In this document: positions 1 to 33,132 of the stretch, in pieces
Position numbering within the stretch: the stretch's first letter is position 1
Layout of the letters: each line of letters starts with the position of its first letter
Assembly (NCBI GenBank): GCA_000826855.1
Contig: JTLS01000026.1
Coordinates: forward strand, 1-43,933
Length of the DNA: 43,933 bases
Reading direction: 5' to 3'
Source: Basidioascus undulatus
Lineage: Eukaryota
Translations under genes and position numbers: made by a program
The notes under the pieces: generated by a model
The model's database searches: none
The model's input: the letters and a program-made list of their open reading frames with translations, nothing else
Told to the model about the DNA's origin: nothing

Positions 1-227
1 ACGTCGATGCGCGGACATGCAAGCGTCAGCGCTGCCAACATGTCTGGACATAACATCCCAGGGACGTACCCGCTAATGAACTCCCGTGCTCGTTATGGAA
101 GTGCTGCAGGTTGATGAGGGCCGCGAAGAGCTCGAAGTTGAAAGGCGCACCGGAACTGTTGCGGTGAAAAGGCGTCTCCAACCCAGTTCCTCCTCCTCCG
201 CTACCGCCATCACCTTCACGGATTCAG

Positions 228-1703
228 ATGACACTTCCTGGACAAGTGTCGTCCCTGTTCCCACGGCTTCTGGCGCGCCCCCCTACCGTTTACGGACCTT
301 CCGCCAATAATAGCGTCCCCTGGTGGGTGGTGTTCGGTCCGGCCATCGTCAGCCCTGTTCCGCCAGCAGTCAGCTGCATCGGCTACATCCCCCCTGCTAT
401 CGCATCCGCTTCCTCATCCCAATCCACCTCTAAAACTCGCCGGTGTTCACCCATTCCCCGCCCAACGAGGGCTCCGATCGAGCCAGAGGGTCCAGAAGAC
501 GACGAGGATGACGATTACCGGAGGAGGGATCTGAAGCCTCGTGCCCCGAGACGCAGTATGCTTCCCTGCTTGAACTGTCCCATCACGTTTTCCATGCTAA
601 ATCAAACTTGTGTCAGCTATCAAGATCTTAAAGTGCAACCTGCAGTGGCAGCCGAATTGAAGGCGCTGACCTCGAGCGCGGTCGTTTCTTCTACCTTCCC
701 AAAGAACCCGGGGACAGCATTGAGTTGGAAAATGAGGACGATGAAAAGTGGCTGGGGGGCAATATCCAAGAACACGTCCGTGCATTCACTCCCGTTCCTG
801 TAGCTTGAGACTGACATGTACGCCTTCGCCCGCAGCTCTTCGAGTTAGTACCACCCCAGATTTTTCACGAGTTTCCCAAGCTGAAATATTACATACCCAA
901 TAGGCTGAGATATGTCAACAACTTCTTTTCATCCGCTTTCGACAACACTCGCTGCACCATGTGAGTTAAAAAAAAAAAAAAGCCTCCATTATTGCGCTCG
1001 CTTGCACATTCTGGTCTGACTTTCTGCTTCATCCGCGTTCAGGCTCCGACTCTTGTGGACAAGGTACCTGCACGACGGCGGTGGCCTGCAATTTGCCGAC
1101 GCTCTACTCGTAGCCGTGCGTTTCTTCCCTGCTCTTACCAATATTCGCATTTGATGCTGATGACAGGATTTGTCTGCAGATCGATAACGTCAGTTAAACG
1201 CTCGCCTCCTTTAACGGAATAACGCGTGCTGATCTTCACCCTTGGGGACAGGTCGATAACATGGTTTGGGTCCCCGACTACCTCAATAAAGGGACGTTGG
1301 GTTTTCGGTGATTCAGACGTTTCTGTCGCATAAGCAGATCTTCTTTCATCTCTAGCGAAATCGTATGTCGTGAATGGCTGGAGTCCGACCCCCGAATGGC
1401 CGCCGCAGAAAGAGAGGAAGATGATGAAGATCAACAATCTTCAGGCGGGGTCGAGCGACTGGGAGAAGGCGATGGAGGTTGAGGACCTGATCCGGTACTT
1501 CGGCTCTCTCGGTCAATGTAAGTGCCACTTTGTGCATAGAGGTGATAGGCGCTGGTTTTGCGTGCCGACAGTGAATGTTAGACTGGTGCGACAACGCCGA
1601 CGCGTTCAGAAACACCGCCACGCGGGTGCAGCACGTCCTCTCCTGGGTTCAACCTCCCTCCGGCGAGGCCACGGATGAGCCCCTCGACACGTTGTACGAG
1701 CGC
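228..1703 (+). pseudogene. Spliced gene of unknown function, 3'-truncated at the junction with the uxs1 pseudogene; the 5' end is uncertain and may lie outside the window
   Basis: Exon-like blocks bounded by GT..AG introns: ...RGRFFYLPKEPGDSIELENEDDEKWLGGNIQEH|gtccgt (~776), LFELVPPQIFHEFPKLKYYIPNRLRYVNNFF...|gtgagt (961), ...EDLIRYFGSLGQ|gtaagt (~1518), WCDNADAFRNTATRVQHVLSW...DTLYER. The last block runs straight into antisense uxs1 sequence. No family recognised. Confidence 0.35.
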
Positions 1704-2963
1704 GTCTGCGCGCCGTCGCCGTACACCATCATCGGCTCGCCGCGCAGCGCCTGCACGATGAAGTTCGACACGACGCGCCCGTCCGCTGGGTTCATCCGGG
1801 GCCCGAACGTGTTGAAGATCCGCGCGACCCGGACGTCCACCTCGTCTTGCCGCGCGAAGCCGTACGTGAGGCACTCGGCGACGCGCTTGCCTTCTTCGTA
1901 GCACGCGCGGATGCCCATGGGGTTTACGTTGCCCCAGTACTGCCGGGCGGGAGAATAGCTGACTTTTAGTACCCGCTGGAAAGGTAGGAGGAGTGGGGGT
2001 GGGAAAAAGTGGAGAGGACTGACAGTCTCCGGCTGGGGGTGGACCTCCGGGTCGCCATACACCTCGGAGGTAGAGGCGATGAGGAAGCGGGCCTTGGTGC
2101 GCTTCGAGAGGCCGAGCATGTTGAGCGTGCCGAGTAACGAGGTCTTGACGGTCTTGACGGGATTATACTGGTAGTGTGGGGGCGAAGCCGGGCAGGCTGT
2201 GAAAGAAACACGCGAGTAAGCGACTGCCAGCTTCGCGGAAGTGCGTCTGGGAAGTTATCGAGGTGGTAGATCTGGGAGCTGTAGTAGGGAAAAAGCTGTC
2301 AGTATGTGGGGTGTGGACGGAGCGGCCGGGGGGGGGGGGAAAGGGAGGCAGCGCACCATTCCACCATGAACGGCTCGACAAGGTCGTGCCGGACGAGCTC
2401 GAAGTTGGGGGGTTCGATCCAGTGCGAGACGTTGCTCTTGGAGCCGGTGAAGAAGTTATCGAGGACGATAATCTCGTGGCCGAGGAGCATCAGGCGGTCG
2501 AATATAGAAGCGCAGCCGGGTATGAGCGCCGGCAGGTAGGAAAGTGAAATGCGCGAGCAGCGGGACACTTGCCGAGATGCGAGCCCACGAATCCCTCCCC
2601 GCCGGTGACGATGATGCGCTACCCCTTTGCGGGAGGGAGGAGTTTAACGGGCGGGTAGGTCTTTTCCGAGGGGTAGGAGCTGGGGAGAGGGGGAAGACAT
2701 AAGCGACGCAGCAGACCAGAGGCTCGACAGTCGACTTACACGAACGTCGCATCGGGCAAGTCCTTTGGGCTGTCCTCCGCCTTCTCAGTCCTGCTCCCGT
2801 CCGTATGGTCGAGGTAGAGCTCCCGCATCGACTCCAGCGCGACGCGCGAGTCGAATCCGAAGCGGTCTGCTCCGGCGTAGTGCAGCTCTTGGCCGTCCTT
2901 ACCGATCGTCGGGGACGCCGAGCGCGCGCGCCTGTTGACGTTCGTGAGGGTCGAGGCAGTCAT
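1696..2963 (-). pseudogene. UXS1: UDP-glucuronic acid decarboxylase (UDP-xylose synthase) pseudogene
   Basis: Spliced translation gives [107 protein letters not shown] and YGDGAQTRS. Lesions: in-frame TAG at 2619-2621, GGAG motif reads GGEG, intron acceptor reads AT instead of AG (2502-2503), and similarity ends abruptly after QTRS (~1696), so the C-terminal part is missing. Confidence 0.93.
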
Positions 2964-3587
2964 GGCGATCGAAGTTTGAGTGAGTGAGATAAGCGAGGAC
3001 TGAAAGGCCGGAAATTGGGAGATGGGAGATGGAAGTCTGGTGAAGGTGCGGGAGGACAAACGCGCGAGCCTGGCAGAGAAAACGAAACACCCCGAGTCGT
3101 TGCGTCTGGTCCCGTTCGTTCAGTCCTGGACCTGATTGAAGAAAAGACTCAGCGCTCGGAGCCCTTTAAGTCTGTGTAGAATCGCTGTGCTCCTGCAGCA
3201 CTCAGGGGGGGAGAGGGAAGGGGAGCAACAGCCGGCATGGAAATGAAGCAGCACGGCCCGCCCGTCCCCCAGCGGCGACAGCTGAACGACAGCCTCTATG
3301 TCCGGAGCCGGTTCCTTTCTGTATCTTGAGCAGGGATTAACTTTCGTGCTCACGCTCAGCTCACTGATTCACTGATTTTGGGATCGTGGCGGTATGGCCG
3401 GGTCTAGAGAGTTCGTCCGCCTGCGACAGTCGTGAAAGACACTCAGCAGGCTCCTGCCAGGACTACCGCACTCTTGCCCCTTCAGGCAGCCGGTTTGCCT
3501 CCCTCTCGTCCCTCCATCCATCCCGCCGTTTGGCTCTTCCTCCAACCATCATACCCATTCACATTCTCTCAGCCGTTTGAAGCAGCG

Positions 3588-5712
3588 ATGGTGGCCGTAA
3601 CTGTAAGCGCCCTCCTCGACTCTCCCACTGCGCTTTCACCGACCGCCCTCTTCCCCTCCCAAAACGTTAAACGCATCTGCTGCAGTGAGTTTCTTGTCTT
3701 CCCTTACTTTACCCTTGCCTCTCCCCCCTACCGGCATCTCCCATCCCTTCCCTCCCTTCCCTCCCAGTCGGAGCGGGCTACGTCGGCGGCCCGACCTGCG
3801 CGGTCATCGACGCAGAAGTGCCCGCACAACGACGTGACGATTGTGGACCTCAACACGGTGGTCAGAGCTGCCTGGAACAGCGACGAGCTGCCCATCTACG
3901 AGCCCGGGCTGCTCGACGTCGTCAAGGAGTGCCGCGGGAGAAACTTGTTCTTCTCGACTGAGGTGCACAGGGCTATTACGGAGGCGGATCTCGTTTTCGT
4001 CCGCTTGCCCCTTTCATCGCGTTCTTTCTGGGAGCTTGGGACTTAACTCGGGGTGGGGTGAACAGGTGAGCGTGAACATCCCGACGAAGACGACCGGTGT
4101 GGGTGCAGGATACGCAGGACCTGAAGTGCGTCGCCTCCCATCTCTTCCAACTCCCTTTGCTCTCATAACTCAACCCTCATATATGTGGAGATCGCCACCC
4201 GACGCATCGCCGAGATCTCCACGTCGTCCAAGGTCATGGTCGAGAAGTCGACCGTCGGCGGACTCGATGCGCGCCATCCTCGAAGCGAACGCCCGCCCAG
4301 GCGTCCGCTTCGACATTCTCTCCAGCCCGGAGTTCCTCGCCGAAGGGACGGCGATCGCCGACCTCCATCAGCCGGACCGCGTCCTTATCGGGAGTCTGCA
4401 GACCCGCCAGGGGAAGGCGGCGCAGGAGACGCTGGCGGAGGTTTATGCCAATTGGGCACCGTGCGTTACGTTGACCCCTCTAGGCATCTTGGGTTACAGA
4501 AGCCTAAATTCCCTCCCTTGATGCTCAGACGCGAAAATATCATCACCATCGGGCTGTGGTCTTCAGAGCTCACCAAGCTCGTGCGTCGTTGTAGCAGCCC
4601 TTCTGCCGGTAGCGGCAACAGCCCACACTAACCCCACTGCCCACAGGCGGCCAACGCGATGCTCGCCCAGCGTATCTCCTCCATCAACGCCCTCTCGGCC
4701 GTCTGCGAGGCGACAGGCGCCGACATTGACGAGGTGGCGAACGCGACCGGGAAGGACAGTCGCTTGGGTCCGAAGTTCCTGAAAGTGTGCTTTCCCCTCT
4801 GCCCCGCCTCCCCCGTACCCCTTCTACTACCTGCTTATCTATTACCCTTCGCAGGCCTCGGTCGATTTCGGGGGGTCGTGCTTCCAAAAAGGTGCGTTGC
4901 CTGAAACATGTCCGACCCAGTGCCGCTGACTGACATGTTTCGCACCAGACATCCTCAACCTAGTATACCTCTCCGAGTCCCTGCACCTTCCGGAAGTCGC
5001 GGCCTACTGGCGACAAGTCGTCGAGCTGAACGAGTACCAGAAGCGCCGGTTCTTGAAGCTCAACGTCGAGACGCTCTTTCAAACTATCCTCGGGAAACAC
5101 ATTGCTGTGCTCGGATACGTCTCTCCTTCCCCCTCTTCAATGTTTTTTGAGGTAGTACTGAGTTCTGAGGGGATGAGGGATCAGGTTCGCGTTCAAGAAA
5201 GACACGGGCGACACGCGCTAGTCTGCCGCGATCACGCTCATCAAGCACTTCCGCGCTGAGCGCGCGAACGTGAGCGTTTATGACCCGAAGGTCGAGGAGG
5301 CGCAGATCTGTACGTTCTGCTTCCTATTCCCAGACTCTCCGGAATTGCTCTGATTGGTTTTTCAGGGTGGTCGGAAGGGATGGACCTCTAAGAATCCGAC
5401 GAGTCGCTCGACCAAGCAAAGTGCAAGTCTCGATTTGCTCGTCCGCGCTCGAGGCGTGCAAGGGCGCCCATGCAGTCTGCGTTCTGACCGAATGGGTGCG
5501 TCTCCGCTCCATTACAAGTTTTCCCCGTGTTCCTCCTCTACCGTGACTGACGGACTATGGTGGGCACGCAGGACGAATTCAAGACCCTCGACTGGCCAGC
5601 CGTCTACGCGGGGATGAAGAAGCCCGCGTTCCTCTTCGACAGGTGCTTCATCCTCGATGCGCCGGCGCTCAAGACAATTGACTTCTCTGTGCATTCTATT
5701 GGGAGGGGCTGA
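3588..5712 (+). pseudogene. UGD1: UDP-glucose 6-dehydrogenase pseudogene
   Basis: Motifs [79 protein letters not shown] and GFAFKKDTGDTR; stop TGA at 5710-5712. Lesions: +1 frameshift ~3810, frameshifting deletions ~4117 and ~4256 (PCRT lost), acceptor AT at 4179-4180, donor AT at 5115-5116, in-frame TAG at 5219-5221 (DTR*S for DTRES), and SVGFGG reads SVDFGG. Confidence 0.94.
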
Positions 5713-5941
5713 GGGTGGGGGTTCGGGCGGCTGCTAGAGGGGAAATCGGATCGGGAGGCACTGGAATATTTCGCTTGGGCTTTCGGTCGTTTTGTTGTTT
5801 TTCGCAGATCATTATCTTTTTGTTCCTCGTATTTTGGCTTTTCATACTTGACTTTGGGTCTGCCAAGACTTCTATCTGGCATGGTAAACGAATCCCAATC
5901 CCTGGCTTTCATCATCCCTACCCGGACATGCGGTCCGGATC

Positions 5942-6184
5942 CTACGGGGGCACAGAGCTACGTGAGAACTGATGGTCACGAACGACTAGGGAGGAGATGC
6001 TCACACTCGGGCAATATCTCTTTGTACTGTCTACTTCCTGACCGCCCGCCTCCATGAAGCAGATGTTGCACCCGTCGCCACACTGGTAGCGCTCGCCGAC
6101 GGCGTGCTCCTTGCCGTCTGATCCGCGGGCGGCCAGGATCGTCGCAGCCAAGAGTAGTGCTATCAAGAAGTGGAGTAGCCGCAT
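5942..6184 (-). CDS. Small secreted cysteine-rich protein, pacifastin/VWC-like
   Basis: ATG plus hydrophobic signal-like MRLLHFLIALLLAATILAA, then DGKEHAVGERYQCGDGCNICFMEAGGQEVDSTKRYCP. A possible gtgagc donor right after CPS (~6004) makes the 3' end uncertain. Confidence 0.55.
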   Translation of the reverse strand: MRLLHFLIALLLAATILAARGSDGKEHAVGERYQCGDGCNICFMEAGGQEVDSTKRYCPSVSISSLVVRDHQFSRSSVPP

Positions 6185-6756
6185 CGCTCGGTGAAAACAA
6201 GGGGTGCTTCGAGGTGGGGTCCGGCGATGTCGCGATGTCGAAGCTGAAAGCGAAAGGGGTGGTCTTCGACTGCAAAGCGCGCTTACCTTTATTCTGGCGG
6301 AGGCTTCTGTCTCAGTCCAGAAAACACCTGGCTTGGCAAACAGTCGGGACCTCTTCCGACTTGGTCACAATCGCGATGGGTTGCGAAACCTTGGGAAACG
6401 GGCGGTAAACAAATCGCTAGCGAATGCACGGACTTCAGTGCGCTTGTCTAGGCTTCGCCCAGACTGAGACAAAGCGCGCTGATAAATGTGGTGGTGAGTT
6501 ATCTCCCACCGTGCTGGACTTCAATATTGAAACTGTGGAAAGAGGTTTTATTCCCATAGCACTTCTGGGTTGTTGTGGGCCAACCGTGTGGCCTGTCACC
6601 CGAAGTCCGCCCGCAGGCTGCAGCGTCGCTTCTAGTTGCAGGAAGCTATGTCTTGTTATTGGGTATGGTAACTGCGTCAAAGGTTTACCTCAAACTCTTG
6701 TTATTTTCTTCGTCACTTGGGGAGACAGCTGGAACATTCGCTGGGTCCTCGGTAGT

Positions 6757-8810
6757 TTACAGGTGCGTGGGTGCAAATTCGATCTCTCTCTGCATCTCCT
6801 CGCCTGCCCCCATTTCCCGGACGTCAGCCCACAGCACGCTGGATGTAAATGGACTGGAAGGCCACAATAACGCACCGAAGTCACCGAGGCATCTGAAGTA
6901 GCCATCCAGCGGATTAGTTCCATACTTCAAGTAAGGGAGGGTTCAGGCTTTCGCGATTCATCGCTCACTGAACCGGCCATTGCGCAAGCGCAATGTCAAA
7001 CCAGAGAGTGTTGACGTCGGCGCGGGTGAAGGTCGATCGACCGAGCGTCCCATTGACAAAAGGCTCAGAGTCAAGAACCGAGACTTCACCAATCATCGTC
7101 ATTTGCGAGCCTGTGAATGGTAGTCTTTAGATATGGTTATCAACGGTGGAGGAACAGCATCGCGCACATGTGTCAGCGGATCGATGAGAGAGACGCCAGT
7201 CACGTTCGCGTGTATAATAGTCTCCCTGATTCGGTTAAGAAGGGAATCATAAAATATGGGACGAAGAAGTTTCAGGGGAATAGTCACCGTCGTCAGGCCA
7301 CGCCAATAGACGCGATTGTCTTGGCTTCTGCGACTGCGAGCATCCCACGTCCACTCTCAGCCTTCCCGCGGGGTGTCCAGGATGTGGAGAGAAGACACCG
7401 AAGAACAGACAAAGGCTTGGTAAGGATATCGGAGCAAAGCCCGGGGACTTTACTGAGCGTGAAGATGGGTTGGACAGGGTATGACAAAAATCCACCAGAG
7501 CTAAACAAGTCAGATCTATCCCAGAGGGATACTGTACTGTCTCTAGCACTCACGCGAAAGACCCATGGATGTCCTTCATCTAGAGATGCAAGCAGTAATC
7601 GGCCGATAGCGTGTGATCGCAGACGAAAGAGGAGGCTGGAAAGCTTGTCGTGAGTTCACTGTGACGAATGCAATAGGATGGGGGTAAATTGAGTTGCGAT
7701 CCGTTCAAGGGCTTATTAGATGGGTCGTGTATGGGCGTTTCAGGCCCGCAACCGTGGGGCCATGATGGTTTGACGAAACGTCGCTCCTCAAGACTCTCGA
7801 TCTCCTGAAACGACAGCATTGTTGGGTAGAAATGTGGGTAGAAATGGTAGCTTCCCAAAGTCCCAAGCTTTTCGTGAAACCAACCTTCTCCAGCCTTCGC
7901 CCGGACCACGGCTTCTGCTCAGTAACTGCCACACTTCTGTCCGTATCCGTAGGCCGGAGTAGAAGAGCGGAGCGACAAACGGCGACTTACTCCCAAGCCA
8001 TGAGACGCTTTCCACAATCGTCGTTGTTGAGCCAGAACTTCATCTTTGGAAGAAGGTGTGCGATGGACCTGAGGAGCTGCAGGTACCAGATAGAGCGCTC
8101 GTGCCCGGCGTCAGAGCCCGAAAGGATGGGAGGATTCGGAAAGGAGGCATTGGGGGGGGGGATTTGAATGGAGTATGACGTGCGGGGAAGATCAACCGGC
8201 GAGGAGACGCGAGCGACAAGGCTGTTCGAGGGAAGCCCGAGCAGGTGCGAAGTTACAAAGGTCAGACTTGGACACTAAGGCAGGAAATTAGCGGTCGCAC
8301 AGACGTGATATCTTTGTCAATCTGGTCGGACTCGTCTATTGTACGGATGTCATGCTCCTTGCACCAGTCCTGTTGTGGCCTTTTCGCAATAGCGCACGAG
8401 GAAGTGTTGTCTCGATTACCGCAGCGACTCACCAATCGTCAACGCCCTTCGGTGGATGCCTCCCATATCTGGTCCTATACCGCTCTGCGGCCTGCTCCAC
8501 TGTGGTGCTCTGTCTCCCAATAATTTCCTTCCACCTCCGCTCCCCCTTCTCCATGAGCCCTTAAATGGGGTGCCTACCCTCGCTCGGTTGCACAGCCGTG
8601 CCGGCGATGGTCGTGCGGCTTGCTGCGGCGCCGAAATCTCGGGGAGGACGATAGTGGACGACGCGGTACCGAAGGAATATTTTGGAGGATGTGGGGGGAC
8701 ATTGAGCCGCTCTTGCTATGCGGCGATAATTTACGACAGCCGGTGATAATCAAGGCGCTCACGAAGAGGAAAAACGCGGCGTGACGGACGCGACGGCGAG
8801 GAAACCACAT
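6757..8810 (-). pseudogene. Glycosyltransferase family 90 (Cap10/Cxt1-like, probable xylosyltransferase) pseudogene
   Basis: Type II anchor MWFPRRRVRHAAFFLFVSALIITG, then ordered GT90 blocks across introns and frameshifts: RHPI*GLME (TAA 8561-8563), RQSTTVEQAAERYRTRYGRHPPKGVDDW, WCKEHDIRTIDESDQIDKDI, LLRSIAHLLPKMKFWLNNDD..RLMAWE, SFVCDHTLSADYCLH, PIFTLSKVPGLCSDIL, DNRVYWRGLTT, VNTLWFDIALAQWPVQC, EEMQREIEFAP. The expected KYxxDxDG C-terminal segment was not found. No single ORF in the track captures this gene. Confidence 0.8.
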
Positions 8811-9561
8811 TGTAAAGAGAAGGCGTGGGAGCAGCGGTAGACGGTGTGATTCTCAGTGGGTAAGAGGAATATTGAAAGCATCGTGACACGAAGTTCTTGT
8901 CGAGCCGGAGGTCTCGCAGACTGGTACGTTTCGGACGGCAACGCCTCAGAGTCGAGTGATGCGTTCTGAGTGACACGGTGAAAGTCTTCGCCCCTACCCT
9001 GGCGACTGTGATCCAAGTTGCAAAATAAGAGGTTTAGTAATCATCATGGCAGAGAAAGAACCATGCGTCACGGTTGGTTGCTTTTGAATAACGCCCGTTG
9101 AATGGGACTGACAGGGAGGCCCTTGCTCCTTCTATGGCGCAGCGTTTGAGCTCGAAGGCGCTGTCGTGTCCTCCAACAAAGGGTAGGGATCACCAATTCT
9201 CTTTAGACCCCGAATGACTAGTTGAACATTCGGCGTGCGTCAAGCGAGGTACCGAGCTTGAGCGCGAGCGGGAATATCGTCTCCGGTTTCGAACTTTCAG
9301 CAACTGAATGCACTTGCCGGAGGAGCCGGAGCGACATGAGAGTCCAGCAGTTTTTACTGACTGCATTTCAGCAGACATGAGGATTCAAAACCTCAAGCAA
9401 AGCCTGATGAGTTTTATGACAGCCTGGAAGGGCACCCGCAAGCGCACTGTACAATCGCAAGACCGGTTACTGTAACCTTAGCGGTCACTTGAGGCCCCAG
9501 GGAACTCGTGGGGTTGAAGGCTTTCGAACGTTGAAATTGGAAATTTAAGGAATGTAGGCGA

Positions 9562-10677
9562 TCAAGGAGCATTGTACACGCTGGAGGAGCTGCAGAGAAA
9601 CAAACGATATCGATATCTCGCAAATTTACGCCCTGCATGGGAATCCTGCAACAGCTCTCTAATCTTACTGAAAACCACATCTGCCACAGTCCAAGGTGGG
9701 TAACAAATGCCGAAGAATAAGGACGGAACCGTCGGGGGAGGCGGTCGGCAAGTACGACGCGTTCGTAGGTGTGCGTCTGTCCGAGCTTCACTCGGTCTTC
9801 CCAATCCTGGGCATCTTCGACGCTGATCCGGGAAAGCAGCCTTGAGCATGGCTCCGTTCAAGCCCGGGCTGTCGCGCCATTCGCCTGGCTGGATGTGGAG
9901 GAGATAGAGGCGTTTGGGAAAGGGGAGAAAGGACGCAGAATTGGCTGGGATTCCGAGGGTGGAGTAAATGCGCCAGCCTGCCAGAACTTGGCGGTCAGTA
10001 AAAAGTACACGGTTGAGGAATCGAAAGGAGGCGCACAGCCGAAGATGATTTCTGAAAAGAAAGCCACGCAGTCACAATGAGCAGCTGAGGCTTGCTAACA
10101 TAAGCTGTGGAATTTTCTGCTCACCTGCCATGAGATGATAATAATGGGCAAGAAATTGACGATAGTCTTTGACGAAGAACTAAGGGTAAGATAGTTAGCC
10201 ACTGCACACTCAAGCCGAGCTCGAAGAAAAACTCACCGAGACGCCATCCTCTTGTGACTCAGAATCCCATGCGCCTCCTCTGGAGAGATGACTCGGATCA
10301 TACCCGGCGTAAGCTCGGCTGCCTCCCACGATTGGTCGTGGAGTCTGAGCGGCTGGTTGAGCATCGCGTAGAGCGGGGGTAACGTCTCGGGCTTCGATGT
10401 GACGAAGTAGAGTGTGCCATTTCGAACTTGGAGATTGTCGATGACGGTGAACCCATGAGCGTGGGCTACGACTTCCGTGTCGGCATCGGTCACCGAGACG
10501 ACTTGCTGGCGGTCGAACGCGCCCGCGACGGTCGAATAGAAGGGCGATTCGGAGAGGCGAGGAAAGGGGTTGAAGGAGTGACAAGGGCGTTGAAAGTAAA
10601 AGATGCGACGAGAAGTGTCGGAGTGATGAAGATAAGGTAACGAAGTGAAGTGCGCTGGAGCGCCGAGTACAGCTCAT
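9562..10677 (-). pseudogene. GT61-domain (Cap64/Cas3-like) glycosyltransferase pseudogene, copy 1, internally deleted
   Basis: Hydrophobic anchor LRYLIFITPTLLVASFTF; TEVVAHAHGFTVIDNLQVRNGTLYFVT; FLAHYYHLMA|EIIFG; GEWRDSPGLNGAMLKAAFP; (frameshift) ISVEDAQDWEDRVKLGQTHTYERVVLADR. The sequence then jumps to a last exon DVVFSKIRELLQD that matches the last exon of copy 2. Confidence 0.78.
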
Positions 10678-11645: not shown

Positions 11646-13657
11646 CTAAGCTGGCGCAGGGACCCCCCTATTTTAGATCAAATGCATCAGCATTTGACAA
11701 GCTCAAAGCGCGACAGGGGATTAAGGAATACTCACCCGTCCTCCTTCATCCCCGTGAGCGCCCGCGCTACCTCACCAGCCCTGACCGCACCCACACTGAG
11801 CAGCCCGTCGCTGAGCCCGTGGCTCTTCTCGTTGAAGCCGAGCACGAACACCCGTGCTTTCCAAGCGCCGTCGGACGCCGGCGGGAGGTAGTGCTCCCTT
11901 TGGACGAGCTGGTGCTCGGCGGGAGTCGACCCGTTGAGGAAAGACGAGAGCGTCGGAAGGTAGGGAGCGCAAGAGGAGAGGAAGGAAAGAGAGGAGGGAG
12001 GACGGTGGTAGCCCGTGCCGAGGAACACGGCGGTGTAGTTTTCGGTGGAAGAGGTGGAGGACGAAGAGGAAGGCAGAAGCGAAGAGACGGTCAAGGAGAC
12101 GGTAGGCTCGCCGGACTGCGGCTTAGAGGCCTGGAGAGGGACGCATGAGGTGACGTGCGAGTTGGCGAGGATGCGGTGGGTAGGAGCGGGAGGAGGGGAG
12201 TTGGGAGAAAGGAGCGAGGCGTCGGACTGGACGCGCTGGCGGTAGAGCGTCTTGTACATGCTTTCGAGAAGCTATGGGGGAATGTGGCGTCAGTGCCGTG
12301 GTTGCAATCCAGTAGGGAAGTGAAGAGAGAAGGGAAGGAAGCGGACCTCTGGAGCAATGCAGCTGTAGTTGGCACGCTTGAACTCGTGCAACCTTTCGAG
12401 ACGATCGGACACCGGGAGAGCGTGGAACTCGTCCGTGGATGCCGGGTCGAACGCACGCGCGTTCACGAAGGGACTGTCGTCAGCGGGGACGAGCGCAGAG
12501 GACCGGTGGATCATGTCGACGGAGGCGCGTGGGTAGCGTGAGAGCAGGTCGTTGAACACCTTGGCGTCGCGACATAGAGGTCAGCCTTGGGGATCGAACT
12601 GGGAACGGGGAGGGAGACGTACCTCAGCGCAAGACTGTCCTCCACCCACTACGGCAAAACGACCAGAGAAGGAGAGGTCCCCCTCATCCGATCCAAAGAT
12701 GCGGCGGAGAGTAGGGAGGTAGTCCGACGTGTGCGCCACGAAGCCCTCGCCCCCGGCGGGGAGCGTGAGGGGCTTGAAGAGCGAAGGGATGACCGGCGTA
12801 GCGCCAGTGCCGACGGAAAGGTTGCGCGTGTAGCGGACATGGAGCGTGTTCGTCGTAGCGTCAAGGCTGCCCAGGGATGTTAGGAAATGGCGGTGCGTAG
12901 ATGCGGAAGGGATGGACGAACCAAGTCACTTTGAGTATCTTCGCCGAGCCTGAGACAGATGGCATGGGCTGGACAGAGAGAACACGATTCGAATACGCTG
13001 CGAGGTGCTACAGGAAAACGATCATGAGAAGACGATCAGCGAGAAATGACATCATGTGGGAGATGGGAGGATCGACGCACGCCGAGCCTCGTCGCCGCCC
13101 AAGCTAGGTAGCCCGCCCACTCTGCGCGCGAGGGAGTCCATGAACCAATGTTGGAGAAGCCGACAAGGCGCTTTAGCCCGTGCGAGTGCAGATACGAGAT
13201 GAACGAGTAGGTGCTTTGCGGGTTGCGGAACGTCTGCAGCGGATGCAGTCGGATGTTGTGACAGTCAGGGGTTATTTCGAGAGAGATGGACGGCAAGGTC
13301 ACGAACAGCGAGGTCCTTGAGGAAAGATATTTGCATGCGTGAAGCCGGAAGCAAGAGAGCTGGGTGCCTGTGGACTGCCTCCGTCAACGGAACCCGTCCG
13401 CGTGGACGTCTCCCTCCGAGGACGCACCAGCTGAACCCGTCCTTCGCTTCAACGAACACCGCCCTCTTCCCAGGATGCTCCTCCTCGAACGCAATCGCCA
13501 GCGCGAGGTGTGTCGGGCCGAACCCAATGCCCAGAAGGTCGTACGGCTCCGGGTCAGTCTGCACGGGGAGGTCGCTCAACAGCGGCGTGGGCGGGTGCGA
13601 CGACGGCGGAGAGAGGGGAGGGGTGGGCGAGTAGTGCATCGGGGGCGTGGTGGTCAT
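11646..13657 (-). CDS. sidA: L-ornithine N5-monooxygenase (hydroxamate siderophore biosynthesis; Sid1/SidA)
   Basis: YDLLGIGFGPTHLALA (FAD site), FSW|HPALLLPASRMQISFLKDLA, TFRNPQSTYSFISYLH, FAVVGGGQSCAE (NADPH site), ALVPADDSPFVN, ANYS, VFLGTGY and FNEKSHGLSDGLLSVGAVRAGE. Multi-exon, with a short last exon GVPAPA* (TAG 11646-11648). No lesion seen. Confidence 0.95.
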
Positions 13658-16699: not shown

Positions 16700-19600
16700 A
16701 TGTCCGACCCACATACCGACCCTCCCCATCTCTCGGCGATCCTGAACGCCTCCGCCCTCAGCTTCAGGCCTCCATCGACGCTCCTTCATGAGCCATTCCT
16801 CGAGCGCGCCAAATCAACCCCGAGCTCACCCGCGCTCGTCTTCTGCTCGTCCGACTCCGGCCCGCCGAGCACGCTCACCTACGCCGAGCTCGATGCGCGT
16901 TCGGCCGCCCTCGCGCGCACTCTCCGCGCCCGACTCGGAGCCCAGGCGCAGGGGAACGGGCAGCCCATAGTCCCGCTCGCGCTCCCGCCCTCCCCCGAGC
17001 TCTACATCGCCTACCTCGCAGTCCTCCGCGCGGGATGCCCGTTCTCCCCGCTCCCCCAGCTCGACGCCGCCCCCGCCGAGCGCCTCCGCGAACTCGTCGC
17101 GGCCTTGGGTGCTCGGATCGTCCTGGGTCTGGGCGAGCGCGAAGAGTGGATGGCCGGGCTTGAGGGCGTGCAGTGGGTGGATGTGAGGGAGGGCGTGGAA
17201 GATGGTACGGCGCTGTCGATCGACGAGCGCGACTGGGACGCGCCCGGGGAGGACGATCTCGCGTACGGTGCGTGCAATTTTCATCTACGCCATCTCGTCT
17301 TAGCGTATTTTAACGTCTCACACCCACTTTTCGGCGGTCATTGCAGTCATGTTCACCTCGGGCTCGACCGGAAAGCCCAAGGGCGTCCAGATCACCCACC
17401 GCGCCGCTGCGTCTTCCATCGCCGCTCATCTCGCCGTCAAGCCCCTTTCTGCCGACGCTCGCTGGTTCCAGTTTGCAGCCTCTACCTTTGACCCGGTGCG
17501 CCTTGATCAGTTCTGTTAAAATCGCAGAAAAACACTTATTGTGTTTCGGCGTGGCTGCAGTCTCTCATGGAGACGTTCATGACGCTCTCCTCGGGCGCGA
17601 CGCTCTGCGCCGCCGACCGCTACCTCCTGCTCACCGACCCGGAGAAGATAATTCGCATCCTCGAGTGCACGCATATGAGTGCGTCTATTTTTTTGTTTTC
17701 GCGGTATTATTTTCTCTATGCTGATCAGGTACTTTCATCCCAATGATAGTGGCTACGCCGAGCATGGCAGCCGTCCTGCGCCGCGACGCCCTGGGCCCCA
17801 ACTTCCGCGAGCTGTGGACGATGGGCGAGAAGCTCACGGACAACGTGATTGAGGCGTTCTCGAGCGGCGACGGCGAGGGGCTGATGAACGCGTACGGCCC
17901 GACCGAAGCGTGCGTTCCCCCACCTTTCCCTCACCTCCTCACGCAGCTGACGCCCTCTTTCTCCCATCGCAGCGCGATCAACGTAACCCTCCGCCCGCAC
18001 CCCCTCAACACGCCCGGCTCGAACCTCGGCGCGCCCCTCCCCTCCGCAGCGGTCCTCATCCTCCCCCCCGCGCCGGCTGCGCCGGAGCCGCTCCCCTTCG
18101 GCACAGAGGGCGAGCTCGCGATCGCCGGCCCGCAGCTTGCGCGCGGGTACTTCGGCCAGCCTGAGCGCACCGCCGAGGCGTTTGTGGACGTGCCTGGCGT
18201 CGGGCGTGCGTACCGCACGGGCGACAAGGCGAAGATCGAGAACGGGGAGGTCATGTTCTTGGGACGCATGGAGGCGGACCAGGTTAAGATCAACGGGAAG
18301 CGGGTTGAGCTCGGGGAGGTGCGTTGAGTTTCTAAGTCATATTGTTCATTCAGCTGCTTACCGGAATCCTGACTTATTCTTATATCCATTCCAGATTGAC
18401 GCTATCCTCTCCCGTACTTCGAGCGTCCAATCCGCCCTCTCCCTCATCTCCGCCGACACGCAGCTCGTCGCGCTCCTCGTCCCCTCCCCCGACTCCGCCA
18501 CGCCCGAGTCCGACCTGATCGTCTCCGCGCGCGACACCGCTGCGCGCCTCCTCCCGCAGCACATGCAGCCGCTGCACTACTTCGTTGTCCCCGCCGTCCC
18601 GCGCTCGGCAGCGGGCAAGACGGACCGCAAGGCTGCGCAAGCGATTGCCGCTGCGCGGCTCGCCGAGGCCCCCGCTGCCCGGGACGCTTCCGCGCCGGAC
18701 GCGGATGTCCCCGTCGACGAGGAGATGCTCGGGGACGTCAAGGCTGCTGTGGCAGAGACGGCGGGCGTGAATGTCGGGGCTGTCGCGGACGAGGCGAACT
18801 TGCTCGCACTCGGGATTGACTCGCTTAGGGGGATCAGGCTCCTTCAGCGCCTGCGCGAGCGTGGGCGGGAGGGACTGACTATTGTGGACGTTGTGAGTCT
18901 TCCATCTTCTCAGTACTTTCCTTCCCATCCTCAAGCGCTGACAACTCTCCGCCCACAGCTTCAAAACCCCACCCCGCTCTCTCTCGCGCGCCTTCTCTCT
19001 GCTCCCCCCACGCACGCCCCCTCCGCCTCCTCCGTCGTCCCGAGCCTCTCCGTCCCCGCCTCCCTCCTCGCGCACCTCCCCTCCCAGCCCACCTCCCTCT
19101 ACCCCGCGACGCCGACGCAGTCCGGCATCCTCACGACCTACCTCGCCGGTTCCTCGCCGCAGGCCGCCTACCTCCACACCTCAGTGCACCACCTCGCGCC
19201 GTCCGTCGACGCCGCGCGGCTCAAGGCCGCCTGGGCGGAGGTCCGCATGAGGCACGATGTGCTTAGGTCCGCGTTCGTAGCGCTCCCGCCCGAGGTCGGG
19301 AAGGGCGTCGCGTTTGCGGGGTGCGTCTTGCCGCCTGGGCAGGAGGAGAAGTGGGTGGAAGAGAAGGGCCAGATTTTGGGGGAGATGGTGGAGCAACACT
19401 TGGAGCGCGTCCATGAGCGCGTGGGGATCGAGGGGAGGCTCGTCGTCCCTGCGCTGTTGGAGGACAAGGCGGGCAAGAGGGCGTTTGTTCTGACTTTGCA
19501 TCACGCGCTGTTCGGTTCGTTTTCTTCTCTGCCTTTCCTCCGTTTCTCACACATGCTGACGTCTTGACTCGTTCACAGACGGCGGCTCCCTCGCCCTCAT

Positions 19601-22600
19601 CCTGCAAGAGCTTTCGACGCTCTTCGCCGACCCCGCCGCGCCCATCTCGCGCACGCCCTTCTCCCACGCCCTCGCGCACGCGTACTCGTTCGACGCAAGC
19701 GAGAACGAGGCGTACTGGAGCTCGAAGCTCGCCGGTGCGTCTCTTCTTCGCTCCAGCCCTGTTTTCTTCCCAGCTCAACCTGCTTTGCTTTTACTGCCGA
19801 TACCTGCAGGCCACTCGCCCGACCCCTTCCCCGACCTCTCCGGCCTCCGCCCTCGTGCCAAGAGCGGAAGGTCCGAGGTCGAGACGATCGTCAGCCAGCT
19901 CAGTTGGGACGCGCTGGCGCAGCGCGCGCAGGAGCTCCGGACTACCCCGCTCGCGGCGGTGCAGGCTGCGTGGGCTGCGCTCCTCGTGCGTTACTTTCTT
20001 CGCTTCCTGTTGCTTTCCCCTCCGTAACCTCAAGCTCACTACGCACGCCTGCAGTACGCCTACTCCGAGGCGGACAGCCCCTCCGTCGTCTTCGGCTCGG
20101 TCATCTCGAACCGCTCGACGCCCGAGCTCGCCACCTGCGTCGGCCCGACGTTCACCACCGTCCCTGCGCGCCTGCCTTCCTCCGACGGCCTCACGAACGG
20201 CGACGTCCTCGCGCACTTCGCCCGGGACAACGTCGACGCTCTCCGCCACCCCATCCCGCCTTCCAGTGCGATTAAGGGACCGGACGGCCTCGTGTATGAC
20301 ACGACTGTCGCGCTTCAGCGGTTCGAGGCGGGCGCGAGGCAGAGTCCGCTCTGGGATAAGGTGGACTGGCCGGCGATGACGAGCGAGGTGCGCTGCCTAT
20401 TGTGTACTTCTGTTGAGGATCAAGCGGGACTGACAAGCCGACCCGTATGGCTGCTTGACAGTTTGCCGTCATGCTCGAGCTCTGGCCGCACCCGACGACA
20501 AGCGCGATCGACATCCGCGCAACGTTCAGCACCTCCATCCTCACCCGCTCCGCCACCACCGCGATGCTCGAGCAGTTCGACGACGTCCTGAGCCACATCC
20601 TGCACCACCCCTCCGCGCCCTACCTGTCCGCTCCCTCGCATGTCCGCCCCGCCCTTCTCTCCGCCATCAACCCGCACCCCGCGCTCCTGGCCGTGCCCGA
20701 CGGCGAGCTCCTCCACTCCCAGTTCGAGCGCAACGCGCGCGAGAAACCCGACGCGCTCGCGGTCTGGTTTAAGTACCAGGTCGCGGGCGGGCAGGACGTC
20801 AAGTGGACGTACAAGAGCTTGAACGAGAAGGCGAACAAGGTCGCGAGGGTTCTGAGGGGCTTGTGTGGCGGGTTGACGGACCAGCCCGTGCCGCTGTGCT
20901 TGGACAAGAGCCCGGAGCTCTACCTTGCCGTGTTGGCTGTCCTCAAAGTGCGTCCCCAGGTCATCTCCAACCGGCCGTCCGCTTCTGACGCTGGTCCTTT
21001 CAGGCCGGCGCTGCCTGGTGCCCCATCGACCCGGCCTTCCCGACCCAGCGCAAGTTCGACCTCCTCACGCGCGCCGCAGGCCGCGTCGTCGTCGTTGCCT
21101 CCGCGTCTGACCGGGCGGAGCTCCTCGGGTCCGGCGCCGTGCCCGAGGGCGTGCATGTCCTCGCGCTCGATGACCCGCGCATCGCCGCAGAGCAGGGCGG
21201 CTCGGACCTAGGAGACGTCGGGACGCGCCCGGAGCACCTCGCGTACCTGATCTGGACGAGCGGAACGACGGGACTGCCGAAGGTGCGAGTCGAGCTTCCG
21301 AAGTTCGCGCATCCGGAAGGGGACTTTGGGTGCTGATGCGTAGCTGTTTGGGCGGGTAGGGCGTGCCGATCGAGCACAGGGCTGCGGTGCAGAGCTTGAA
21401 GGCCCTGCAGGACGCGATTCCGTGGAGGACGGACGGTGTCCGGTGCTTGCAGTGCGTTTCGCTGATACTCAGCTCTAGCCTTTTTCAACCGGCGATACTG
21501 AGCTCCTCGTTTACACAGGTTCTCGGCATACACATTTGACGTCTCAGTACACCTCTCCCTCTTCTTACCTTATGTGGAGAGCTAGCTAACGCCTTGAATC
21601 ACACCGCAGGTGCAAGACTTCTTCTACACCTGGGGCGAGCCAGCCGGCACGCTCTGTTCAGCGACGCGCGACGTCCTCCTCGGCCAGTTCGCAGACCTCT
21701 GCAACGAGGTTGAGGCGACGCACGCTTTCGTTAGTCATGCTCGCTCTCCCCCCACCCATCCGCTCTCTCCGTTCCCTTTCTCGTTTCCGGCACTCTGACA
21801 AGACGTTCCTTCTCGCCTTTCAGCTCACCCCCGCATTCATGGCCACGGTTCCCCTCAAGTCCTGCCGGACTTTCCAAGCGCTCACGAGCATTGGCGAGAA
21901 GCTGCCCGACGCCGTCGCGGACGCATGGTGCGCGGAGGGGGTTGTGAGCATCAACTCGTATGGCCCGGCAGAGAGCACCATCGTTTCGACCGGTGAGTCT
22001 TGGCGGAGACTAACGGGCACAAAATGAGACTGAAAATGCTCGGAGGTGGGCAGCGCGAACGTGGACGCCGGGCGAAGCGTGCAAGGCGCACAACGTTGGT
22101 CTGCCCCTGCCGACCATTAGCTGTTTCGTCGTCAAGGGCGACGAAGTTCTCCCGCGGGGCGCAGCTGGCGAGCTAGGTCCGTATCATTTCTCCTCTCTCG
22201 GTTTCGAGGGTATGTAAGGTTTCCACCTCTGACATGCATGACCTCCAGCGCTCGGCGGACACCAAAACGCCCGCGGTTATCTCCGCCAGCCCGACAAGAC
22301 TGCCGCGAAGTTCGTCGATCATCCGGTGGCGGGACCTGTCTATCTGACCGGCGATGTGGTGCGGTGCGTCTGCTCTGAACCTCGAGCGACTTGCGCCGAA
22401 ACTGACGATTGCGCTTGGACTCATCTGTCTCAGCATCCTTCACGATGGGACTTGCGAGTTCGTCGGCCGCACGGACGACCTGGTCAAGATCGGCGGGATC
22501 CGCATCGAGCTCAGCGAGATCAGTGCGGCGATCAACGAACCACACAAGCTCGCAAGGGAGGCGGCGACGCTGCAGCTGACACGCCCCGAGTGCGTCCTTC

Positions 22601-25600
22601 GTTCTTTCTTCTCTTTCTTCTGACGACCGCCAGCATTGCTGATCTTTCCGCTTGCCTCCGCAGCCGCCCCCAAACCGTCATCTGCACATTCGTCGCCGTA
22701 CCGTCCCTACCGCGTTCCGCGGAACCCAACACGTCCCCCCTCGCGGTCGAGATCGCGTGCGCCGCGAAGGACCTTGCGCACCGGACACTGCCTTCGTACA
22801 TGCTCCCGAAGTGCGTGCCCCATTCTCTCACATCTGCGTAGCTTCAAACTCCTGCTGACATACCATCCTCGCTCTTCCCCAGCGTTTTCCTCGTCCTCGA
22901 TCACATCCCGCACACACCCTCGAACAAGATCGACCGCAAGGCGCTGGCAGCCGCGTACGCCAACGTGGATATCGCGGGATGGGAGCGCGATATGGCGGGC
23001 GCTTCGGGCGGCGGCGCGGGCGTGGAGGACGATGGAGAATGGACGGAGACGGAGATCGAGATGCGCGACGCCGTGTCGGAACTCACGGGCGCGCCGAAGG
23101 AGGCGGTAGACAGGAGGACGCATTTGCCTGCGCTGGGCGTAGACTCGGTGCGAATATTTCCATTACATCGAGATGCCGGACGTTTACTTACGCCAAGTCC
23201 GGACATCTTCAGATCCGATCTATCACCCTCTCGACCAAGTTCCGCTTGGCCGGTATCCATCTGGCGGTCGTGGACATCATCCAGAACCCCACCATCCGGC
23301 AGCTGAGCGAGCTGCTCGCTAGCCGTGCCGCGCAGCAGGGTGACGGGCCGGATGCCCGGCAGCGGCTCGAGGCGTTTGACGGCGAGTGGCGAGGGAAGGT
23401 CGGAGAGAATGGGCAGGGTGTTGAGAGGGTTTTGCCGTGCACGCCGCGTAAGCCAATGCGTCTGCTTGTCTTACTTCCTGAGCATAGTTGAGACTGACTA
23501 GCGGACTGTGTCACAGTGCAGGAGGGCATGCTGGGCGAGACGATGCAGGACCCGCGCGCGTACTGGACGCACCACCTACTCGCTCTCCGGCCGAGCGTTG
23601 ACGTACAACGCCTGCGTGGTGCTTGGACGGAGGTGGCGAGCCGCACGGAGGCTCTGCGGGTCGGTTTCGTAGCTGCCGCGGAGGTCGGGGCTCAGAATGA
23701 CAAAGACCAGTTCTCTCCGTGAGTAGCTTTCTCAATCTGGAAAGCCTGTGGAGCAATGGCTGAAGTGGAGATCACTTCGCAGAACGTTCCTGCAACTCTT
23801 TTACAGTAGTGCAAGCGTCGACTGGAACGAGAGCGCGACGGCATTGTCGCTCGAGCAGGCCGCGAAGGATCGCGCCGGACAGGTCGTTAAGGAGCGGGCC
23901 GGCTTGCGACGTCCGCCGTGGGTTTTGACGCTTTTCGCGCTGCCAGACAACCAGCGGGTACTCATGCTGTCAATGCACCACTCGTACGTCTTGTTTGTAT
24001 CCAGTCGCTCTTTTCCGGTCCTCATTCCATGCGCTGGGCAGCATCTTCGACGCCGACACGCTCAACTTCATCCTCTCCGACGTGAACTGCGCATATCTCG
24101 ATCGCCCCATCCCCGACCGTCTCCCGCTCTCCGACGCTCTCGCTATCATCCTTCCTGGCGATGCGGAGTCCCCCGCCCGTTTCTGGGCTGCGAGGCTCGC
24201 CGACTACGCCGATCCCGATGCGCCGACCGTGCCGGATCTCACCGGACGCTCGCGATCTGCGCTCGGCTCGACGGCCTTCTTCTCTAAGCGCGTCTCTACC
24301 CGCACCGCGCGCACCGCTCTCGCTACCGCAGCGCAAGCCCTCGACGGCTCGCTCGGCAACCTCGTCCAGGCTGCGTGGGCGGTCGTACTCGCCGCCTACC
24401 TCGAGACGTCCTCCGTCGTCTTCGGCGAGACGCTTTCTGCGCGCCTCGCAAGCCCACAGCTCGCTACCGCTCTTGGGCCGTTCATCACCGCCACGCCGGT
24501 CCCCGTTCGACTGGACGAGAGCAAGACAGCCCGGCAACTCGTCGCCGAGCTCGGGAAGCTCGCTCAGAGCAGCATCGAGCACCGGCACGTCCCGCTCCGC
24601 CGCGTCGGACAAGCTCTTCAGCGTCCCAAGGGCCAAGCCCTGTTCCCGGCGATGTTCGTGCTGCACCTTGAGCAACCAGAGCTGGTGGGAGAGGAAATAT
24701 GGGAGCGCTTGGAGGACGTTGTGGGGCTGCAGGTCGAGCATGGATTGGCGCTGAACGTCGAGCTGCGAGAGGGCGGCGTCGAGCTGGATCTGTGGGGCGA
24801 TAGCGGCCTTGTGTGCGTCGTCCTCGCTCCTTCTACTCATCCAGGCAGTTGCTGACGAAACGGTGTACGTGATGCAGCGCACCGCAGCAACTCGAACTCC
24901 TCGTCCAACAAGTCGACGCGGTCCTTTCCGCGCTAGTCGAGCATCCCGACAAACCCCTCCTCTCCCTCTCCTCCGCCCAAATCCCTCCACGGCTCCTTTC
25001 CATCTCACAACCTACGCCCTCCAACACGCTGCGCGATGCCCCTCTGCGTCCGCCGACTTACTGGCTCGAGCACCACGCGGCGCACAACCCCGACTTCGTG
25101 GCGGCTGTCGTTGCGTCAAGCATCGAGGAGGAAGGAGTGGAGACGAGATCGTGGACTTACCGGGAGCTCGACGAGGTGAGCAGAGCTTCTTGTGTGCAAG
25201 TTTCCGTAGACGCTGAAAGCTCATATCTGGAGTCTTTTGTAGGCATCAAACCGCGTCGCCAACTTCATCCTGTCTAGCGGCGTCTCGAACCAAACGGTCG
25301 CTTTCTGTATGGGAAGGACGCTCGAAGCGTACGCTTACCAACTGGGGTGTGTTTGCTCTTCATCTCTTCTTTGTCGCGACTTCGGGCACTGCGTCTGATC
25401 AAACGCGTCCTTTTCAGCATTTTCAAGTCGGGAAACGTATGCGCGCTTTCCTGAATGCCTATTAGGTCCCGATTAACTCTCATTGGCATGTTCAGACCTA
25501 TCTCCCCATCGAGGAAGATCTCCCCACCGCGCGGAAGGACCTCCTTGTCAGAGACAGTAGCGCGGCGCTCGTCTTCACCACCTCGACACACATCGAGAGC

Positions 25601-31600: not shown

Positions 31601-33132
31601 GGGTCAACGCCACCACCTCGCGGCCTGGCTCAAGGGTGGTCGAACTTTCTACGAGCCACCGTTTGTCTGTGCGTGTCCGCGTTAGTATCAATCAGCCCAA
31701 CATGAAGCTGACTGGCGCTTTCGTGCACAGACCGAGCGTCTGCACCGCTCGACCCAGTTCGTGCCGCCGCCGCGTGGCGCTCCCTTCGGCAGCGGCATAG
31801 TATTTTGCGAACGGCATTTGCAGCGGTTTCGGAGACCGACGTGGTGCAGGTCGCGCTCAAGGACGTCCCGTCCGAAGACCCGACGTGGGCATTCGTCGAG
31901 TTGCAGGGCTCATTCGAAGAGCAGGTCGTCGAGCAGATCCGCCTCGAGGCGAGCCGGCCATCCGACATGTTCTTCCCTCCTGTCCGGGGCCGTCACGTCC
32001 GCGTCGGCGGCAGCGATGCTTTCATTCTCTTCATTCACCATGTTCTTTACGGTACGCATTTGATTTGACATTTTTCTGGGGGGTACATCTCACCCGCGTT
32101 ATCATCAACTTGTACAGATGCCTGGTCTATCCCACTCCTCATCTCCGACCTTGGCGCGCTATACGACGAACAGCCGTGCAGCAGCTCTCCCCACTTCACC
32201 GACCTCGTTCAGCACGTCTACTCCTCGCGCGACTCCGACGCCGACCGGCAGCACTGGTCGACCTCCCTTTCGGAAGCGCGACCTACCCTTTTCTCTCCCC
32301 CCGCTTCTTCGTCCTTGCCCGCCGACACCTTCGTCTTCATCCGGAACGCTATCACCAACATCTCAACGCTCTGCTCCTCTGCCCTCCGATCCAATCTTGC
32401 GCTTCCATCCGTCATCCTCGCCTCCCTTGGTCGTGTCTTCTCTGTCGTCGCCGATTGCCCCTCTCCCATCTTCGGCCTCTTCCAAACCGGTCGGTCGGCG
32501 TCGTTCGACAGTATCGAGCGCGTCGCAGCGCCGACGCTCAACGTCCTCCCTCTCCGAGTCCGTGCCGCTGGCGCCGGCGAGCTCAAGGAGGTCGCGGCGG
32601 AGGTGCAGGCTGAGCTCGGTCGCCGGACGGCGCACGAGCAGGTCAGCTCGCGCGAGATTGGCGAGTGGGTCGGCGTGCTCGGCCAACCCCTGTACAACGT
32701 GTACGTCAACCTCCTCTGGCACACCGAGCACATTCGAGAAACAAAGGGACAGCTTTTGGAGCGTATGGATGTACGTGTCTTCAGTCGCGCTCTCATCCGA
32801 TTCCTCTTACTCACCCAACTTGTCTCTAGGTGGGCGTGCCAACCGACTTCGCAACGAAGCATCCTGTCGGCGGAAAGACAGCTGTGGACGCTATTGACCG
32901 ATCATATTTGCCTGAGGTGCGTCTGAGACTTTCTGATGCCAGCGTTCTTCAGTATTTAATCTTCCCGCCCACGTAGGCCTCTCTCAACATCGACATTGCC
33001 CTCAACGCGGATGCTGACGCAGTCGACATCGCCCTCCGATGCGAGGGCAGACTGATGGACGACCCGAGCGCGCGCAAGCTCGTCGGCGACTTTGCGGAGG
33101 CGGTGCAGCGCGCGGTAGATGAGCTGGTTTAG
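16700..33132 (+). CDS. Ferrichrome-type siderophore nonribosomal peptide synthetase (SidC/Fer3-like), A-T-C-A-T-C-A-T-C-T-C-T-C
   Basis: Three A domains: [11 protein letters not shown] ~17350 with NAYGPTE and [16 protein letters not shown] ~21255 with NSYGPAE and [16 protein letters not shown] ~25790 with YRTGD. Five T domains: LGIDSL ~18810, LGVDSI ~23135, LGIDSL ~27465, LGLDSI ~29335, IGLDSI ~31285. Five C domains: HHALFDG, HHSIFDA, HHSIYDG, HHSLYDG, HHVLYDA. About 49 short introns by manual reading; TAG at 33130-33132; no frameshift noticed. Adjacent to sidA. Confidence 0.95.

Follow-up and report, generated by a model that had tools for sequence, protein, structure and literature searches.

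Contig JTLS01000026.1 of Basidioascus undulatus (GCA_000826855.1), a stretch of 43,933 nucleotides analysed here in full as the window (contig C1778 of a fungal assembly of 32.1 Mb in 2992 contigs), carries within positions 1696-10677 four intron-rich genes, all of them broken: UXS1 (UDP-glucuronate decarboxylase), UGD1 (UDP-glucose 6-dehydrogenase), a GT90 gene and a GT61-like gene (Table 1). The four genes are probably what is left of an accessory cluster for glycan biosynthesis, put together from duplicates of single genes that the fungus itself carried. A first-pass annotation of the same DNA had proposed four damaged genes here, and spliced alignment bears this out for all of them, with direct Pfam matches adding to the case for UXS1 and UGD1. 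To map the lesions, a script that allows for splicing and frameshifts was used to align the window with gene models built from intact paralogues on other contigs of the genome.

Neither of the two donor-sugar genes keeps an intact reading frame. UXS1, which starts at 2963 on the minus strand, has a TAG stop at 2621, has lost a splice acceptor at 2502 and a donor at 2258, and is truncated at 1695/1696, past residue 340 of 502, so that the gene is split over two contigs; UGD1 carries three frameshifts (3809, 4257 and 5422), two stops (5219 and 5389) and three damaged splice sites (4118-4170, 5115 and near 5370). The UXS1 remnant is 74% identical to its intact paralogue and 62% identical to an Exidia protein (P0043), and groups with named fungal Uxs1 proteins in the tree, while UGD1 is 80% identical to the intact copy on contig C2312 and groups with named fungal UGD; the best matches of both are basidiomycete proteins. 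The two genes lie head to head, and we infer that the 624-bp interval between them served as their shared promoter.

The truncation of UXS1 falls at the edge of a decayed dispersed repeat. The 3' third of the gene lies on contig C1682 (2212 to about 1922), where it carries two further frameshifts, begins within a few bases of the end point of the window copy and is joined to the continuation of the repeat (C1682 2212-2295), which matches the copy on C2438 where that copy runs on. Read from these junctions, the break is a reciprocal one inside the repeat, with both of its products present, on C1778 and on C1682. The C1682 piece sits just upstream of a Tfb4 gene (PF03850), which, having one match genome-wide, marks the old left boundary of the group. 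The repeat itself, seen in the window and at about 9400-7560 of C2438, has stops in both of these copies.

The GT90 gene has stops at 8563, 7921 and 7582 and at least two frameshifts (7097 and 6967), and has lost about 130 of 624 residues at its C terminus; a TGA that the aligner called at 8431 is, on inspection by eye, an ordinary splice donor with a frameshift after it. It is 43.5% identical to the paralogue on C2425, with intron positions in common and an alignment score of 509 (58-66 for three shuffles). An exon of that paralogue matches PF05686 at E 0.06, under the cut-off, and falls near GT90 clusters of the Atlas (0.89-0.91), in which PF05686 is found in 12-68% of the members. Through these relatives, there is moderate evidence for placing the window gene in GT90. 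A weak match on C2353 (E 0.07), considered as a further GT90, turned out to be another gene, and a PDB search with a GT90 exon returned chance matches only.

The GT61 copies of the window are likewise assigned via relatives only. One exon of copy B leads to 33 relatives, 21 of which match PF04577 at E<=0.01 and five of which score above the cut-off; among them, P0013 reaches 45.3 bits (cut-off 27), weakly matches the EOGT structure 9wjk (E 0.045) and itself finds three GT61-like copies, namely A and B in the window and one on C114. Copy A is frameshifted both in exon 1 and at position 9825, and an internal deletion removes most of its C-terminal half. The second GT61 paralogue annotated at 34633-39994 is indeed present, but it appears to have been split by a 4.5-kb inversion, its halves joining, as expected, where copy A continues unbroken. 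A homologue search with exon 1 of copy A gave none at E<=0.001 among 294 candidates, and the Atlas matches of this exon, all below 0.9, were unrelated. A Cryptococcus gene table carries Cap64-related and SGNH-esterase labels and no GT61 (PMC12506587). Nothing was found that ties GT61 to the Cap64/Cas3 family, and the link drawn in the first-pass annotation is unsupported. The SGNH genes of the table are presumably Cas33 and Cas34. As a family, GT61 takes in EOGT along with plant xylosyl- and arabinosyltransferases.

Table 1. Features of the window (contig C1778, unless another contig is named) and the basis on which each was recognised.
Feature	Position	Strand	Basis
Decayed intron-containing dispersed repeat, left part, joined to the broken UXS1 end	177..1695	+	86-87% DNA identity to C2438 copy, ending at 1695
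UXS1 pseudogene, 5' two thirds	1696..2963	-	PF01370 and PF16363 at E 1e-19; spliced alignment
UXS1-UGD1 interval, 624 bp between divergent start codons	2964..3587	.	Start positions
UGD1 pseudogene, full length, 10 introns	3588..5712	+	PF03721 at E 1e-11, PF00984 at E 2e-13
80-residue open reading frame between UGD1 and GT90, signal-peptide-like start, four Cys	5942..6184	-	Translation
GT90 (Cxt1/Cap10-like) pseudogene, N-terminal hydrophobic anchor, C-terminal part missing	8810 to about 6770	-	Alignment to intact C2425 paralogue
GT61-like pseudogene A	10677 to about 9640	-	Alignment with P0013, a GT61 protein (score 183 vs 45-57 shuffled; E 3.8e-4)
SidA-like L-ornithine N5-monooxygenase, intact	11732..13657	-	PF13434; open spliced frame
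Siderophore non-ribosomal peptide synthetase (NRPS), intact, A-T-C x3 + T-C x2, about 50 introns	16700..33132	+	Open spliced frame; Pfam A, T, C domains
GT61-like pseudogene B, C-terminal half, left end of 4.5-kb inversion	34633..35549	+	Exon homologues; frameshifts
GT61-like pseudogene B, N-terminal half	39994 to about 39110	-	Stops where C-half starts, judged vs copy A
Third GT61-like gene, broken by stops and frameshifts	C114 about 20300-18500	-	Match to P0013

Intact, unlinked paralogues of three of the genes are found elsewhere in the genome, UXS1 on C745, UGD1 on C2312 and GT90 on C2425, with a further apparently intact GT90 on C2329; the separate housekeeping copies of UXS1 and UGD1 that the first-pass annotation had named as support are therefore there. 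The flanks of these paralogues hold unrelated neighbours and share no synteny with the window apart from the genes themselves. In the UGD tree, built from 32 of 120 UGD matches, the window gene is the sister of the housekeeping copy (Shimodaira-Hasegawa-like approximate likelihood ratio test, SH-aLRT, 98), and in the later of two UXS trees, built from 27 of 120 matches, the same holds for UXS1 (SH-aLRT 99). The organism itself is sister to Tremellomycetes, Dacrymycetes and Agaricomycetes together in the former and falls among Agaricomycetes in the latter, a tree without a Dacrymycetes row; its lineage is described here broadly as Agaricomycotina-like. Compared with the housekeeping copies, the two donor genes of the window show synonymous divergences (dS) of 0.78 and 0.90 and ratios of nonsynonymous to synonymous divergence (dN/dS) of 0.16 and 0.17; such low ratios at such depth imply that both duplicates were conserved long after duplication and were functional before they decayed. 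Intron positions match those of the paralogue for all five window UXS introns and for 9 of the 10 window UGD introns. Taken together, these comparisons show that the UXS1 and UGD1 of the window arose long ago by duplication of the housekeeping genes and then spent a long time under purifying selection. Two introns of the C745 gene are absent from window UXS1, and one window UGD1 intron is absent from the C2312 copy.

A rough post hoc estimate puts at about 6e-9 the chance that UGD, GT90 and GT61 would each lie no more than 9 kb from a UXS copy. Other genomes were surveyed for the same linkage. Among metagenomic UGD loci (the best 80 of 254, comprising 29 intron-bearing and 51 intronless ones), UXS, GT90 or GT61 was found near UGD at none of the 29 intron-bearing loci, 15 of which have at least 1.5 kb upstream, and a UXS-like match occurs at 22 of the 51 intronless loci, some of these being weak epimerase matches. 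UXS1 and UGD1 are adjacent in none of 10 named Agaricomycotina species, in which their accessions lie at least 240 apart, on contigs of unequal size, so the pairing is derived rather than ancestral; since this comparison concerns distant housekeeping copies, it is neutral as to an intact cluster in close relatives. An intact syntenic version in relatives, which the first-pass annotation would have counted as support, was thus seen neither at the 29 intron-bearing metagenomic loci nor in the 10 named species, none of which is a close relative. Of the physically linked xylosylation module that the first-pass annotation proposed, the linkage, which is far above chance, and the purifying selection on both donor genes fit, whereas an intact version in relatives was not found in this survey.

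Several observations weigh against an accessory cluster. An intact copy was seen nowhere surveyed, the linkage is observed solely among copies that are now broken, and the window shows no recognisable nucleotide-sugar transporter or synthase for a polymer backbone. The first UXS tree, a mixture-model tree of 48 of the 120 matches, has no supported sister pair. The unlinked GT61 gene on C114, around which 28.5 kb contain no UXS, UGD or GT90, is broken as well, so the loss reaches beyond the cluster. Direct Pfam scans of the window pieces are also negative, for GT90 against PF05686 (the exons are short and the C-terminal part is deleted) and for GT61 against PF04577 (the pieces are short and frameshifted). 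The first-pass annotation had named the lack of any GT90 or GT61 profile match as a ground for abandoning the idea; taken literally, the window pieces do lack one, and the families were assigned through relatives. Genome-wide searches with PF05686 and with PF04577 each gave 0 candidates, and since the pieces are short and the intact GT90 paralogues were missed too, these genome-wide negatives are uninformative.

How such a cluster might have worked can be outlined from its parts. Ugd1 forms UDP-glucuronate, and Uxs1 converts it to UDP-xylose. Both transferases, GT90 and GT61-like, have a hydrophobic anchor at the N terminus, as is typical of Golgi type II proteins. The shared promoter would switch on UGD1 and UXS1 jointly, raising cytosolic UDP-glucuronate and UDP-xylose (the latter made by Uxs1; PMC10889740), and an unlinked transporter would supply the Golgi with the UDP-sugar. 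There, the membrane-anchored GT90 would add xylose to mannose-containing glycans, as do Cxt1 and Cxt2 of Cryptococcus, and the GT61-like enzymes would attach another sugar, xylose or N-acetylglucosamine. Since neither a transporter nor a backbone synthase was recognised, the cluster probably served to decorate a glycan that unlinked genes produced, and the product would most likely have been a condition- or stage-specific xylosylated glycan, at the surface or secreted. Once that glycan was no longer needed, the dedicated copies would have decayed, very roughly 5% neutral divergence ago, with the housekeeping UXS1, UGD1 and GT90 kept.

The damage to the copies consists of stops, frameshifts, lost splice sites, deletions and two rearrangements. 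The observed stop counts are 1, 2 and 3, and a neutral divergence of 5% would predict 1.0, 2.4 and 2.2; these counts are compatible with loss within one period and too weak to prove it. The earlier suggestion that the module was lost as a unit therefore agrees with the stop counts, at low power, whereas the broken GT61 on C114 points to a wider loss. Each of the three GT61 copies found in the genome is broken, while UXS1, UGD1 and GT90 survive at other loci; one entire glycan therefore appears to have been lost.

Alternatively, functional copies might have come together only late, for instance when a repeat-rich region was rearranged or captured them, without ever forming a co-regulated unit. 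The repeat remnants and the two rearrangements in the region, the solitary broken GT61 on C114 and the absence of the linkage from every relative surveyed would all suit such a history, which we nevertheless consider unlikely: it fails to account for four genes of the same pathway in a row or for the head-to-head UXS1-UGD1 arrangement, and the known rearrangements split the group rather than built it.

It is slightly less likely again that the acceptor was not a surface glycan but a small molecule, for instance a glycolipid or the siderophore of the adjacent genes. The location of the SidA and NRPS genes between GT61 A and GT61 B invites this idea, as do the basidiomycete xylosylated metabolites with the clustered transferase EriJ (PMC8463280, PMC10830979) and the xylosylation of glycosphingolipids, too, by Cxt1 (PMC13753743). 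Golgi-type anchors on the transferases, however, sit poorly with a cytosolic NRPS, and the siderophore genes are intact whereas all the glycan genes have decayed, which makes the siderophore a less likely acceptor.

The region might instead belong to a second subgenome or a segmental duplication that has decayed, or the cluster might have been acquired from another fungus. This would explain why the dS values of UXS1 and UGD1 to their paralogues are similar, and fungal glycan clusters do move between lineages, as with galactosaminogalactan (GAG) in Trichosporon (PMC4817252). Such an origin is improbable, given that the paralogues lie on four separate contigs with unrelated flanks, that Tfb4 is single copy and that the trees group both genes with the genome's own copies, which leaves room for an unsampled close relative as donor.

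The intact neighbours bear on whether the damage is real. SidA and the NRPS form a divergent pair (11732-33132) that lies between the two broken GT61 genes; the NRPS, which from its domain order we take to be of the ferrichrome type, keeps three A-domain and five T-domain motifs, and two oversized introns predicted in it proved by eye to be intact exons. By inventing introns, the ab initio splicing script produced lesion-free paths for the UXS1 and UGD1 pseudogenes as well, and its verdict of no lesion therefore proves nothing alone. The intactness of the pair is judged instead from the core motifs, all of which are kept, from normal intron sizes and from four odd introns viewed by eye, with a 93-nt NRPS intron at 31757 outside this check. 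On this basis, the earlier description of the NRPS as lesion-free is upheld, and the damage next to it looks real, as the first-pass annotation had argued. Assembly or consensus error is scarcely credible as the source of lesions that are, admittedly as a point against our reading, known from the assembled sequence alone, since they include substitutions to stop and at splice sites, since both products of the reciprocal UXS1 break lie on separate contigs, which is not what consensus error would give, and since the 16.4-kb NRPS and SidA alongside need no repair. A search of sequencing runs listed three DNA runs that contain this stretch, two of them marked as possible sources of the assembly itself, and no RNA run; this listing carries no weight in the argument.

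Among known systems in fungi, the GAG cluster of Aspergillus fumigatus comes closest; it comprises uge3, gtb3, agd3, ega3 and sph3, and in it, as here, a nucleotide-sugar enzyme is physically linked to a glycosyltransferase, there a dedicated enzyme for a surface glycan (PMC4817252). The window differs in its sugars and enzyme families, having two donor enzymes (UGD and UXS), Golgi-type GT90 and GT61 transferases, native duplicates and damage in every gene, and six-frame reading and Pfam scans recognised none of the GAG set (Uge3, Gtb3, Agd3, Ega3, Sph3) in it, with no polymerase, deacetylase, hydrolase or spherulin. The group is thus organised like GAG, yet it is not a GAG cluster. In Cryptococcus neoformans, the genes of the xylosylation pathway as a whole are not known to lie together. 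That pathway (Ugd1, Uxs1, Cxt1, Cxt2, Cap10) resembles the window in its donor route and its GT90 family, where Cxt1 and Cxt2 act in the Golgi as beta-1,2-xylosyltransferases on capsule, O-glycans and glycosphingolipids (PMC13753743, PMC10889740); unlike in the window, UGD1 and a CAP10-domain gene lie far apart by locus numbers (PMC12506587), and no GT61 tied to this pathway was found in the literature searched. GT90 takes in the fungal xylosyltransferases (PMC6193724). In the apiose operon of Xanthomonas pisi (UAS, the GT90 ApiT and the GT2 XylT), a UDP-xylose-making enzyme adjoins a GT90 (PMC6193724); the window genes differ from this operon and from prokaryote-type UXS-UGD tandems in being rich in introns and in having genes of the fungus itself as their sisters. 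The erinacine (eri) cluster with EriJ is a case of clustered xylosylation in a basidiomycete, but its acceptor is a small molecule, the available parts of its descriptions list no UGD, UXS, GT90 or GT61, and plant UGD and UXS were added for erinacine production in yeast (PMC8463280, PMC10830979). A fungal UXS-UGD-GT90-GT61 cluster is apparently undescribed, as the first-pass annotation had supposed: no description was found in the literature searched, with subscription journals and supplements outside its scope, and the parts available of PMC8022950 and PMC13202872 contain nothing on one.

Other features of the window touch the group less directly. The 80-residue reading frame between UGD1 and GT90 gave no match in a Pfam scan and may lie outside the cluster; we presume its cysteine spacing to be loosely like that of pacifastin inhibitors. 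Within the 4.5-kb inversion lies an apparently intact Methyltransf_16-like gene (35980-37154, minus strand; E 0.001, under the cut-off), presumably Efm7/Nnt1. A decayed stretch at about 33400-34300 (minus strand), without a match in the Pfam scan, reads like what we take to be retroelement RNase H, and 37600-38650 contains a pair of decayed segments, related to each other and separated by about 660 bp. At 42970-43933 (plus strand), a gene with Pre-PUA and PUA domains, which we take to be eIF2D/Tma64-like, runs past the contig end.

As a fossil in one genome, with no intact version found in the survey, the group is of limited value. GAG is the main example of glycan synthesis from clustered genes in fungi, and a cluster of UXS1 and UGD1 duplicates would be a different arrangement. 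No functional paper on the fungal GT61-like family was found in the literature searched, and the neighbourhood described here ties this family to UDP-xylose metabolism, which offers a testable guess for the GT61 donor. It is possible, albeit on balance doubtful, that an Agaricomycotina lineage evolved a dedicated, co-regulated cluster of UDP-xylose synthesis, GT90 and GT61 for a specific glycan, at the surface or secreted, and that relatives keep an intact version; if so, the cluster would open a first way into the function of GT61 enzymes in fungi and would represent a second type of fungal glycan cluster beside GAG.

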